This document shows positions 1 through 3,322 of a DNA stretch of 64,000 nucleotides, one piece after another. How positions within the stretch are numbered: the first letter of the stretch is position 1; every line of letters starts with the position of its first letter. The notes beneath the pieces are model-generated. The model saw only the letters and a list, made by a program, of their open reading frames with translations, had not been told where the DNA came from and ran no database searches. Source of the stretch: a virus (taxonomy: Duplodnaviria; Caudoviricetes). Location of the stretch: IMG/VR virus record IMGVR_UViG_3300035498_000621, positions 1 through 64,000 of that record, one strand, 5' to 3'. The translations under genes and the position numbers were made by a program.

Positions 1-19
1 GTCATTTATTTTTTATAAG

Positions 20-27
20 CAAATATA
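20..27 (-). promoter_or_regulatory. Bacteroidetes-type -7 promoter element for a leftward transcript
   Basis: CAAATATA = TATATTTG on the minus strand; a minus-strand ATG (CAT at 3-5) follows at the window edge. Confidence 0.45.
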
Positions 28-117
28 ATATTATATATGTTAATTAAAAATATATAAATGTTAATTATTATTAAATTACTTTTTACGGAATAAAAATTAA
101 CTATACATTATATTTTA

Positions 118-271
118 TCCCCCCCCTATCTAGCAAATCCCGATTTTTTTATTTTAAAGTGCTATATTATAAAAATTATACATGTGAGAGTATATTATAC
201 GCATGAGAATATATTCACTAGAAAGTTATATGCACGAGAGTACACTCAGATATTTAGTCCCCCCTCTATCT
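118..271. repeat. Imperfect direct repeats upstream of first gene
   Basis: TCCCCCCCCTATCT 118-131 and TCCCCCCTCTATCT 258-271 bracket three GAGARTAYAYT units (185-196, 204-217, 235-248). Confidence 0.5.
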
Positions 272-300: not shown

Positions 301-705
301 ATGAAACAAGAATTTAATGAACAGCTTGAGCAAATTATTGCTCACCTTGGTGACTCACAAATGGCTAAGTCCGTTCGCGAAATGCCGCTTGCTGCTATTG
401 TGGGCGACGTTTTGACGTTGACGGGCGAAACAAAGGTAATTCCTACCGAGCTTAAGACACGTGACGGTCAAAGCATCTCATATGGTGCTTTCCTCACTGT
501 TGAGGGCTTTAAAGTGCCGTTTGGGCAAATTGCGCGCCGTAACAACGGGTTAGGGCTTGTGGGTGATACCCGCGCGGAATGTATCCGTGAATTTGCCGCC
601 AAAATTCCCGACGAGGGATTGAAGCTCAAGGTGGTGAAAGTCAAGAAGGTCGAGTCTTCTTTCGATGACTCAAAGCAATCTTACGTGATGTTCGAGTACG
701 TTTAA
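301..705 (+). CDS. Hypothetical protein, unusually GC-rich
   Basis: 134-aa ORF with A-rich leader, followed by a hairpin. Confidence 0.75.
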   Translation: MKQEFNEQLEQIIAHLGDSQMAKSVREMPLAAIVGDVLTLTGETKVIPTELKTRDGQSISYGAFLTVEGFKVPFGQIARRNNGLGLVGDTRAECIREFAAKIPDEGLKLKVVKVKKVESSFDDSKQSYVMFEYV

Positions 706-710
706 TGGTT

Positions 711-735
711 TGGGGCATTTGCCCCATTCCATTTA
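711..735 (+). terminator. Hairpin after first gene
   Basis: TGGGGCA-TT-TGCCCCA followed by TTCCATTTA. Confidence 0.5.
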
Positions 736-804
736 TGTGTAAACATGCGTAAAAGTAATTAAATCTAATTAATGTGTAAAATTTCGTGAGAAAAATTACA
801 CAAA

Positions 805-875
805 AGACATTCTAGACGTCTATAACACACTCACTGATGAGGCTAGAACGAAACCCCTTAAAAAGGGGTCTGAGT
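805..875 (+). ncRNA. Type I hammerhead ribozyme 1
   Basis: Stem I ACTCA(829-833)/TGAGT(871-875), CTGATGA 834-840, G-C stem II, GAAA 850-853, stem III CCCCTT/AAGGGG, cleavage after GTC 870; loop II CTAGAA pairs with upstream hairpin loop TTCTAG (810-815). Confidence 0.92.
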
Positions 876-897
876 ATAAACTAAAAAGTAAAAAATT

Positions 898-1122
898 ATG
901 ACTATTTATAACGTAACAACAGTAAACGAAAAAAGGGCAAATACTAAATCTTTCTTAACGGAAGAAGAAGCACGTGAATATTTTAATACACGTGTTTCGA
1001 ACATGTCTAAATGTACAAATGTCTATGATGCTAAAAAAGTATCTGAGGATATTTTTATGTTTTTCGTTTATTCAGAGGGTAATTGCACTAATTTTATGTC
1101 ATTAACTACATCTGAACTCTAA
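898..1122 (+). CDS. Hypothetical protein downstream of hammerhead 1
   Basis: 74-aa ORF with AAACTAAAA leader. Confidence 0.7.
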   Translation: MTIYNVTTVNEKRANTKSFLTEEEAREYFNTRVSNMSKCTNVYDAKKVSEDIFMFFVYSEGNCTNFMSLTTSEL

Positions 1123-1195
1123 AGACAGCCAGGAGTCTATAAAATAATCTCTGATGAGACTGGACGAAACACTATCGTAAGATAGTGTCAGATTA
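1123..1195 (+). ncRNA. Type I hammerhead ribozyme 2
   Basis: Stem I TAATCT/AGATTA, CTGATGA 1151-1157, GAAA 1166-1169, stem III CACTATC-GTAA-GATAGTG, cleavage after C1189; loop II CTGG pairs with upstream CCAG (1129-1132). Confidence 0.92.
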
Positions 1196-1220
1196 ACAAA
1201 ACAAGTAAACTAAAACGACA

Positions 1221-1376
1221 ATGAACGCATTTGAACTTAGATCTGGCTATCTCGTATGCCATAATGACAATATGGTCACAATTTACGACACCATTGAAGG
1301 AGCTAAAGAACATGTAGCTTTTCATGGTAACAAAGAAGGTTGGTATATTCTTGATCTTACCGTTAAGAGTATATGA
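1221..1376 (+). CDS. Small hypothetical protein (51 aa)
   Basis: Manual translation MNAFELRSGYLVCHNDNMVTIYDTIEGAKEHV...; AAACTAAAA leader after hammerhead 2. Confidence 0.6.
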   Translation: MNAFELRSGYLVCHNDNMVTIYDTIEGAKEHVAFHGNKEGWYILDLTVKSI

Positions 1377-1385
1377 TGAATGTGT

Positions 1386-1432
1386 AATTACATAAAGAAG
1401 GATTTAATAATGATTCTTCTTTATGTAATTAT
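1386..1432. terminator. Long inverted repeat / possible terminator
   Basis: TAATTACATAAAGAAG...CTTCTTTATGTAATTA. Confidence 0.5.
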
Positions 1433-1533
1433 TGTTATAATCTATTGATTACAATGATTTTTAGTATTTTCTTTTGTATAGTTATATTTGCTATAATATA
1501 TGAAGGTTTAGATTCATACTTCCCTAAAGAAAA

Positions 1534-1722
1534 ATGAGTTATATAACTGTCTACGGCAAATTGACTGACCACAGAATACTTACTGAAGATGGTGTGTATT
1601 GGTTAAAGTATACATGTAGTATTAAGGCTACTGGGTACTTTCTTTTACACAAAGAGTGGACTGGTACTTATACTATCATAAGAATGTTGGTTGAAAGTTA
1701 TGGTGAAGAGGAAGAAAAATGA
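1534..1722 (+). CDS. Hypothetical protein
   Basis: 62-aa ORF. Confidence 0.5.
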   Translation: MSYITVYGKLTDHRILTEDGVYWLKYTCSIKATGYFLLHKEWTGTYTIIRMLVESYGEEEEK

Positions 1723-1809
1723 GGACAGACATCCCATCCTCCTTTTCACCATTTTTAATCAAAATTCCATTTCAAAAATTATTTCGAAGTCAATAGCTAG
1801 TTACAATAA

Positions 1810-1872
1810 ACATTCTGATGAGTCTTTGAAAATTAAGACGAAACCTAGAAATTTTTTTTCGATGGTCAATGT
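1810..1872 (+). ncRNA. Type I hammerhead ribozyme 3
   Basis: Stem I ACATT/AATGT, CTGATGA 1815-1821, stem II GTCTT/AAGAC, GAAA 1840-1843, irregular stem III, cleavage after GTC 1867. Confidence 0.8.
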
Positions 1873-1895
1873 AAAACTAAAAATAGATTAATAAG

Positions 1896-1973
1896 ATGAA
1901 AACATTTTACCTTGTAGATGGAATTATGTTCGACTCACTGAAAGCAGTGCGCGAATATCGTGAAGGCAAGTAA
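1896..1973 (+). CDS. Micro-ORF (25 aa) downstream of hammerhead 3
   Basis: MKTFYLVDGIMFDSLKAVREYREGK; same AAACTAAAA leader. Confidence 0.4.
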   Translation: MKTFYLVDGIMFDSLKAVREYREGK

Positions 1974-1986
1974 CAATCCATTTTGA

Positions 1987-2015
1987 ATAGTCCTAGGCAA
2001 GACTATAAACTGCCT
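1987..2015 (+). ncRNA. Compact H-type pseudoknot
   Basis: S1 ATAGTC/GACTAT, S2 AGGCA/TGCCT, AAAC linker. Confidence 0.55.
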
Positions 2016-2049
2016 TTAACACTTATAAAGTGTTATATGTATCTGCTAT

Positions 2050-3030
2050 CATGATGCAGTATAAAAATACATGACCAAACTACTTCTGACGCCTATATAA
2101 GGAAGACTATTGGAATATTTTAATAACATTGGTAGGCAACCTAACAGCAGGGTTAAAGACGCTGTATATTCTATGAAATCCATGTAGAATATAACATGAT
2201 AAATGGTTGGCCCGCAGGAATACGACTGCATTAACTTCTATTTAACGAATCATGTAAAAATCCACAACATGAGGGTAAAATGGTGGTTGACAACTCGGAA
2301 AGACGAGTATTAATTATTTAACTTTTTAATTTATACAACATAGTAAGAATTTACTGCACTCTTAATGCCGTTACGCTGTTGAAGAGTATTGGGAAAATAT
2401 TATGTTGTAAAGTATATTTATTCAATTAAATATACTTATTATGTTTAACTTTTAATAAAAAGAATCATACTTCGCACCATTCCAGCGAATAGATGTTCAA
2501 CTTATATCTAGAATAAGTTCTTGTACGGGAAGTGGAATTGGTGGCTGTTCCAAATTAGCCAACGAAAAATCAGAAATACCTAGAGTAACTGGATATGGGT
2601 ATTTCAAATTATTATTTCTAGAATAATAATTATAAGTCTAAAATTGTCTATTTCTAGAGTTAGACTAAGGGAATATAACATGTATTCGCAAACCATGTGC
2701 GCATCCCTGAATTAAGTTTGCGATAACGGTCTTATTTGCAACGCCGTGAATATTTCGCTCAAAGTAAAGATAAGAGCCTTATACATAAATTTGTCAGCAT
2801 AAATATGTATTAAGTATCAAAACTGTCCAAAGGATTCAGGCGTACAGATCTACAGAATGGTGATGAGCTAGTCCATTCAAACTCAGTATTACGATGTGAG
2901 TATAAATAATATCGTACCAATTGACATGAGGAAATTGTCATAGTTTATTTAACTAGGAGTGACGTTAAATAAATGAAGATATAATCATAACTCAGTAATG
3001 TGTAAAAAGCAGCTACGTTGGTAACGTAAC
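2050..3030 (+). ncRNA. Long structured non-coding region (one or several ncRNAs)
   Basis: No credible ORF; several helices and pseudoknots (e.g. ATGCAGT/ACTGCAT, 2471-2542, 2881-2916). Confidence 0.4.
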
Positions 3031-3039
3031 AACCATGTA

Positions 3040-3119
3040 GAAGAGTATAGTCAATGTTGGTATTTGTACAAACTTTCTTCGAAAGTATAAGATCATGAGT
3101 TCGATTCTCATTACTCTTC
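3040..3119 (+). ncRNA. tRNA-like element with degenerate D/anticodon arms
   Basis: Acceptor GAAGAGTA/TACTCTTC, T-arm ATGAG-TTCGATT-CTCAT, central ACTTT-CTTCG-AAAGT hairpin. Confidence 0.6.
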
Positions 3120-3196
3120 CTAATTAAAATCCTTTAGCGAGGTGGGAGCTGTGCAACTCCTTTATCATCTGCACTTTATAAAAACTAAAATAACTT

Positions 3197-3322
3197 TCCA
3201 AGTTGTTGAGGACAGCCGTGTTCTCTAAGTCATTTTAAACATAACACTATAACTAAAAAACAACTAGTATATAGTAAAAATCGTGAGTAGCTCTCCGTAG
3301 TTATGGACCGAGTTTAGGCTGT
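3197..3322 (+). ncRNA. Multi-pseudoknot structured RNA / leader
   Basis: AGTTGTT/AACAACT, ACAGCC/GGCTGT, GTGTT/AACAC, ATAACTA/TAGTTAT pairings. Confidence 0.45.

Follow-up and report, generated by a model that had tools for sequence, protein, structure and literature searches.

The hammerhead locus and its position in the phage genome

At the left end of the DNA analysed here (the window, i.e., the first 64 kb of an IMG/VR virus contig of 161,412 bp with 26.9% G+C), three predicted hammerhead ribozymes, designated HH1, HH2 and HH3, stand among small open reading frames with the following features:

301-705, plus strand: first gene
711-726, plus strand: terminator-like GC hairpin after the first gene and upstream of HH1
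804-875, plus strand: HH1, type I hammerhead of the RAGATH-1 class, predicted cut after C870 (GUC^UGAGU)
871-897, plus strand: 27-nt A-rich leader after the HH1 cut, with AAACTAAAA at 878-886
898-1122, plus strand: 74-aa ORF, with a 66% identical protein in L039/L083 (155-kb phage contig)
1122-1194, plus strand: HH2, type I hammerhead of the RAGATH-1 class, predicted cut after C1189 (GUC^AGAUU)
1190-1220, plus strand: 31-nt A-rich leader after the HH2 cut, with AAACTAAAA at 1207-1215
1221-1376, plus strand: 51-aa ORF, identity of 61% in contig L016 and 56% in L039
1385-1431, plus strand: 20-bp AT-rich hairpin (inverted repeat) of the second segment, terminator-like or a stabiliser
1534-1722, plus strand: 62-aa ORF of the second segment, with a 34% identical protein upstream of a hammerhead pair in contigs L020/L025
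1809-1873, plus strand: HH3, canonical type I hammerhead, predicted cut after C1867 (GUC^AAUGU)
1868-1973, plus strand: 28-nt A-rich leader with AAACTAAAA at 1874-1882, followed by a 25-aa ORF at 1896-1973

The ends of the contig share a 150-nt overlap (window positions 1-149 and genome positions 161263-161412) with one homopolymer indel, and the assembly thus appears to be circular and essentially complete. The record classes it as 'linear, 89% complete', in contrast to this appearance of a closed circular assembly. The plus-strand genes from 301 to about 64 kb are readable in the standard code and include those of NrdD, DNA polymerase and a TROVE/Ro-like protein together with 13 tRNAs, whereas the blocks at 64-147 kb (minus strand) and 147.5-160.5 kb (plus strand), with ORFs of 2316 and 3006 aa among them, are open only with TAG as a sense codon, the late genes requiring TAG read-through. 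Small minus-strand ORFs and a minus-strand tRNA-like gene are found to the left of window position 1 and, therefore, positions 1-300 represent a divergent intergenic region. The hammerheads stand at the very start of the rightward standard-code block, which is of the early type.

Only two relatives of the major head protein were found among GenBank phages, both of them in uncultured phages from human faeces, and no nucleotide match was obtained by megablast against the GenBank phages. A Shine-Dalgarno-like 4-mer was found in only 2 of the 56 genes, and the leaders are A/T-rich and G-poor; this scarcity of Shine-Dalgarno sites, together with such leaders, would fit a Bacteroidota-type host.

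Identification of the hammerhead cores

The core pattern CTGATGAG..CGAAAC occurs three times in the window versus none in 100 shuffles and is absent from the rest of the 161,412-bp genome, all three occurrences being confined to one 1.1-kb stretch of the coding (plus) strand. Each element carries CUGAUGAG..CGAAAC and a GUC triplet, that is, the hammerhead core CUGAUGA ... GAAA with a cleavage triplet of the NUH type, and three helices surround the core with the core-adjacent pairs intact in all three elements (for HH1 and HH2 according to the Rfam alignments). The GUC^ cleavage sites derived from the covariance-model alignments are predicted after 870, 1189 and 1867; these are the sites given in the preliminary description of this DNA, and its count of three hammerheads likewise agrees with the exactly three plus-strand cores. 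Judged by sequence and alignment, HH1-HH3 are real hammerheads of known classes and predicted cleavers, and two ribozyme classes are assigned to the locus, namely RAGATH-1 (HH1 and HH2) and the canonical type I (HH3). An Rfam hammerhead search, which the preliminary description had named as a check, bears out part of this assignment: HH1 and HH2 exceed the cut-off of RF03152, but HH3 lies under every Rfam cut-off.

HH1 and HH2 as members of RAGATH-1

RAGATH-1 is a curated Rfam family (RF03152), with a model of 77 positions and a gathering score of 56.3 bits, against which 60.7 bits were obtained for HH1 and 77.7 bits for HH2. Both fit the full 77-position model and possess the features of the family: beginning with the 5' hairpin, they continue through stem I, the conserved core, a stem II of one pair and the hairpin of stem III to the GUC site and the second strand of stem I. 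Within the family HH1 is divergent, exceeding the cut-off by only 4 bits; its 6-bp pseudoknot differs in sequence and is compensatory with respect to the consensus (UUCUAG:CUAGAA, versus CCAG:CUGG in HH2 and the consensus CCUAG:CUAGG), and HH1 scores 30.8 bits against the type I model R1 described below.

For the analysis of covariation, HH1 and HH2 were aligned with nine RAGATH-1 copies of other phage contigs (11 sequences), and the helices considered were the 5' hairpin and the pseudoknot between the hairpin loop and the loop that replaces stem II. Across the 11 sequences, 100% of the cells in these two helices were paired, with compensatory changes in 7 of 10 pairs, a number reached by none of 500 shuffles; the pseudoknot alone showed compensatory changes in 4 of its 5 pairs, and the signal was abolished when the partner columns were shifted as a control. 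The covarying pseudoknot thus argues that even the low-scoring HH1 is a selected member of RAGATH-1. A variant of the same family was observed at 1192-1269 of L025 (relative G003), with the core CCGAUGAG (U to C), the triplet GUA and a permuted pseudoknot CUAGG:CCUAG, and still with 75.6 bits.

Assignment of HH3

The third element is placed outside RAGATH-1, having a normal 5-bp stem II, no 5' hairpin and only 21 bits with that model, and its scores are under all Rfam cut-offs (RF00008, 32.6 versus 48.5 bits; RF00163, 14.4 versus 34 bits; RF03152, 21.2 bits). Its catalytic core is complete, with stem I ACAUU/AAUGU of 5 bp, stem II GUCUU/AAGAC of 5 bp closed by the loop UGAAAAUU, and an imperfect stem III consisting of two C-G pairs beside the core followed by one bulge and one mismatch. 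When 1805-1875 is folded alone, the predicted minimum free energy (MFE) structure is the hammerhead of HH3, but with the upstream flank a competing fold becomes the MFE structure, at -13.0 versus about -8.9 kcal/mol for the hammerhead, and in stability the hammerhead folds do not exceed shuffled AT-rich sequence.

The classification of HH3 was based on relatives of its core. A scan of IMG/VR for this core, with the pairs of stem II left free, gave at least 118 stretches; among 116 distinct copies, 100 were of type I, 11 of type III and 5 ambiguous. A covariance model (R1) was built from 78 phage type I copies, none of which belongs to this genome, and it recognised HH3 with 63.0 bits (E 3e-18) in the type I register with the cut after 1867, a score that partly rests on the core pattern behind R1 having been taken from HH3 itself. 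On this DNA the model also found HH1 and HH2, and the next match, not a hammerhead, scored 14 bits. The widespread phage type I hammerhead with the loop UGAAAAUU, represented by these at least 118 stretches, shares with HH3 an identical 30-nt core as well as similar stems and a similar architecture of the gene joint; HH3 differs in its weaker stem III and in an upstream near-copy of its substrate strand (1782-1794).

Two other placements of HH3 were considered and set aside. Its reading as a RAGATH-1 member starting at 1787, in accordance with a weak Rfam alignment and with the span in the preliminary description, leaves it without the 5' hairpin and pseudoknot and with 21 bits. A type III reading, with the cut after 1791 or 1803, was suggested by the 32.6 bits of RF00008 and by L016 and L039, where true type III copies have an identical loop II; the model R2, made of seven distinct type III copies sharing the HH3 core, gave HH3 40.5 bits without stem I and so adds nothing beyond the shared core, whereas the type I model R1 adds about 20 bits, and type I also accounts for 100 of the 116 phage copies of the core. 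The comparison of both model scores indicates that the stems support the cut site after 1867.

The near-copy mentioned above, TTTCGAAGTCAAT at 1782-1794, resembles the substrate strand TTTCGATGGTCAAT of HH3 (1857-1870), and in the MFE structure that includes the flank, 1782-1792 pairs with stem II and the core, displacing the hammerhead fold. It could be a pseudo-substrate, an attenuator or the remnant of a type III ancestor.

Small genes and leaders between the ribozymes

According to the preliminary description, each hammerhead is followed by a leader with the motif AAACTAAAA and a small ORF of 74, 51 or 25 aa. The ORFs do exist and AAACTAAAA is found in each leader, but the 25-aa ORF finds no support in related phages. 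Conservation marks the 74-, 51- and 62-aa ORFs as real genes, and for the 25-aa ORF and another of 30 aa no homologue was found among the related-phage loci compared. The small proteins gave no PHROG or Pfam match, and the protein atlas provided no useful lead. The motif AAACTAAAA was also considered as a special signal and rejected, with 9 matches in the window versus 6.2 +/- 2.4 expected; it suits the leaders of this phage, which are A-rich and G-poor in general. The distances from the cut to the ATG are 27, 31 and 28 nt for HH1, HH2 and HH3, respectively, and none of these leaders contains a Shine-Dalgarno site. The 74-aa ORF and HH2 overlap by one base, the last of the TAA stop codon.

The second segment, 1190-1867, is bounded as the preliminary description claimed, but besides the 51-aa ORF it holds the 20-bp hairpin, the 30-aa ORF and the conserved 62-aa ORF, which had gone unmentioned. 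The hairpin at 711-726 suggests that HH1 may open a new transcript instead of lying in read-through from the first gene, and with that at 1385-1431 it may indicate that there are several transcripts instead of one. After the 25-aa ORF, about 1 kb (1974-3040) is without a credible ORF and without a match to an Rfam family; since no homologue of the 25-aa ORF was found either, the cut of HH3 may instead define where a non-coding RNA begins.

Ribozyme-gene joints in related phages

In each of the related contigs (155-175 kb), one or two ribozymes of these classes are found at a single locus, and tandem ribozymes are retained round homologous small genes. In L020/L025, a 73-aa ORF stands between two RAGATH-1 copies separated by 306 nt, whose leaders measure 26 and 29 nt, and the distance from cut to ATG is 26-29 nt in L006/L007 and L025. 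In L016, a RAGATH-1 copy and then a type III hammerhead precede the homologue of the 51-aa gene; in L039, the homologue of the 74-aa gene is followed by a near-identical HH2, without HH1; and in L024, a RAGATH-1 copy is followed by about 250 nt of non-coding sequence. Between contigs that are otherwise dissimilar, the identity of the ribozyme cores is 80-90%.

The architecture of the joints was surveyed in 99 other phage type I hammerheads in comparison with random positions, and, as percentages that are descriptive for loci not phylogenetically independent, an ORF stop was found within -15 to +5 nt of the ribozyme start in 66% versus 6%, the next ATG 20-59 nt past the cut in 71% versus 21%, and both together in 48% versus 1.6%.

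The mosaic of cassettes among relatives, as seen in L039 (74-aa ORF and HH2 without HH1) and in L016 (RAGATH-1 and type III before the 51-aa gene), and the similarity of the cores between dissimilar contigs might be explained by the ribozymes being bystanders, i.e., selfish or relic elements, or conserved sequences of about 50 nt that serve as recombination joints for the shuffling of small-gene cassettes, with cleavage having no role of its own. This explanation is quite improbable in view of the intact catalytic cores, the compensatory changes that maintain the stems and the pseudoknot, and the strongly constrained position relative to stop and start codons, which together point to selection on the RNA fold and the cut site.

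Proposed processing of the early transcript

Real hammerheads on the coding strand, at the intergenic joints of small co-directional genes and in the standard-code block, make self-processing into short mRNAs the natural reading of the locus. Thus, it is probable that active, constitutive hammerheads cut one or more rightward early transcripts at the small-gene joints and yield short mRNAs; we infer here that they cleave in vivo and do so early, as well as any consequence for stability or translation. The self-processing of the early transcript had been put forward in the preliminary description and is retained as the best reading, in agreement with the reality of the hammerheads, their position at joints and the published precedent, but the single transcript implied there is an assumption, given the hairpins at 711-726 and 1385-1431.

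Hammerhead cleavage leaves 5'-OH and 2',3'-cyclic phosphate ends. In the proposed scheme, self-cleavage at the gene joints would be co-transcriptional and constitutive and, with the type I topology (open stem I), nearly the whole ribozyme would stay at the 3' end of the upstream piece, which would end in a compact fold with the 2',3'-cyclic phosphate. The downstream piece would begin with the 5'-OH and only five ribozyme nucleotides, its A-rich, unstructured leader of 27-31 nt without Shine-Dalgarno leading to the ATG. The predicted products are 871-1189 (319 nt) with the 74-aa gene, 1190-1867 (678 nt) with the 51-aa and 62-aa genes, and a third from 1868 onward, so that separate short mRNAs with fixed ends would result.

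The joints may be something more specific, position-tuned devices for translation, in which a 5'-OH end 26-31 nt before the ATG makes internal cistrons 5'-proximal for initiation without Shine-Dalgarno, the terminating ribosome gates folding, and HH3 may be held back by 1782-1794. The upstream stop abuts or overlaps the ribozyme, and a terminating ribosome would consequently gate the folding of the latter. We consider this extension rather unlikely; if true, the cleavage of one message would be coupled to the translation of the previous gene.

Clustered hammerheads of prophages are known to flank single genes or short gene blocks, for example, as a triple hammerhead around ardA in Agrobacterium tumefaciens and in Clostridium scindens, and the processing of long phage transcripts into single-gene mRNAs was proposed for them; three tandem arrangements were shown to cleave in vitro, and the triple of Agrobacterium to do so in vivo (Perreault et al. 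2011, PMC3088659). The present locus is similar in that several same-strand hammerheads flank small phage genes, here three in 1.1 kb with conserved genes between them; unlike those clusters, it belongs to a large lytic-type gut phage with TAG recoding, initiation without Shine-Dalgarno and two ribozyme classes, and is known from sequence. The HHphage ribozymes of haloviruses HF1/HF2 likewise lie just upstream of an early-gene start codon, and the mapped 5' end of the early transcript is at most 3 nt from the HHphage cleavage site, but there the host belongs to another domain and the ribozyme, a core variant, is present only once (Perreault et al. 2011, PMC3088659). No paper combining 'hammerhead' and 'crAss-like' phages was found in the literature search. 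Phage hammerhead arrays having been known since 2011, the locus is an ordinary new example and not a new kind of system. The role of bacterial and phage hammerheads is still unsettled, and the locus provides a clean added case, with the arrangement from the survey (abutting stop, ATG 20-59 nt past the cut) offering a concrete, testable rule for the effect of ribozymes on mRNAs.

Possible fate of the predicted cleavage products

Early phage genes often require transient expression, and this would suit an alternative in which cleavage mainly destabilises, the 5'-OH ends marking the downstream early mRNAs for rapid 5'-to-3' decay and giving short-lived messages or a timed shut-off. Such a role is held to be unlikely, as the ribozymes show no ligand-binding or switch domain and the fixed 26-31-nt leaders right before the ATGs look translation-tuned. 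The precedent in its favour is the glmS ribozyme, where self-cleavage in the 5' leader similarly gives the coding part of the mRNA a 5'-OH and RNase J1 of B. subtilis rapidly degrades this product (PMC3328962); however, glmS is ligand-dependent and destabilises via RNase J1, whereas the hammerheads here are without a sensor domain. The same 5'-OH product, being a preferred RNase J1 substrate in B. subtilis (PMC3328962), contradicts as a general rule the statement of the preliminary description that such ends resist decay. As far as the sequence goes, the effect on the messages may be stabilising or destabilising.

In retrozymes and viroid-like RNAs, two tandem hammerheads delimit a short RNA with ligatable ends, and the members of such pairs are copies of one sequence, whose compatible ends are ligated into circles. 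By analogy, the segments 871-1189 and 1190-1867 might be circularised by an RtcB-type ligase of the host or by reversal of the hammerhead cleavage, as the preliminary description had proposed, to give exonuclease-resistant circular mRNAs; the predicted 5'-OH and 2',3'-cyclic phosphate ends are RtcB substrates, and RtcB is present in Bacteroides thetaiotaomicron, the control of the RtcB search. That search of the phage genome revealed no RtcB encoded by the phage. The three stem I sequences differ (ACUCA/UGAGU in HH1, AAUCU/AGAUU in HH2 and ACAUU/AAUGU in HH3), unlike those of retrozyme and viroid-like pairs, and a regular stem I is, therefore, impossible between the 5' end of a segment and the ribozyme at its 3' end: the hybrid stem I of 871-1189 has a U.U mismatch at the core-adjacent pair and that of 1190-1867 has two central mismatches, so that no circle is expected. 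The single published search for circular or spliced products of tandem bacterial hammerheads gave none (Perreault et al. 2011, PMC3088659). Because of the missing phage RtcB, the incompatible stem I strands and this negative search, the proposal of circles is abandoned as very improbable.

Non-coding sequences near the locus

A 31-nt direct repeat (731-761 and 768-798) lies immediately upstream of HH1. Exact copies of the word TAATGTGTAAAA are found at 770, 22 nt upstream of HH1, and at 2996 (2996-3007 of the window), 33 nt before a tRNA-like element at 3041-3120; its interpretation as a repeated promoter, possible from this placement, was rejected, as the word does not recur in the rest of the window. 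At 874-893, the leader that HH1 would release is complementary in 18 of 20 positions to 2317-2336 in the ORF-free region of the same strand, a match that is borderline versus chance by a rough estimate.

A small hairpin ACTCGGAAAGACGAGT with an A/T-rich tail is found at 2293-2308 of the window, at ~12425 in L016 and at ~2745 in L039, in all three phages downstream of the region of the 51-aa gene and within otherwise dissimilar non-coding DNA. Another motif, TTCCAAG.TGTTGAGG at 3196-3211 of the window, resembles a longer conserved word TTCCCAAG..GTTGAGGGCACCAGTTTC of non-coding sequence in L016 (~12385-12355) and L024 (2163-2190), and it may be part of a conserved small RNA.
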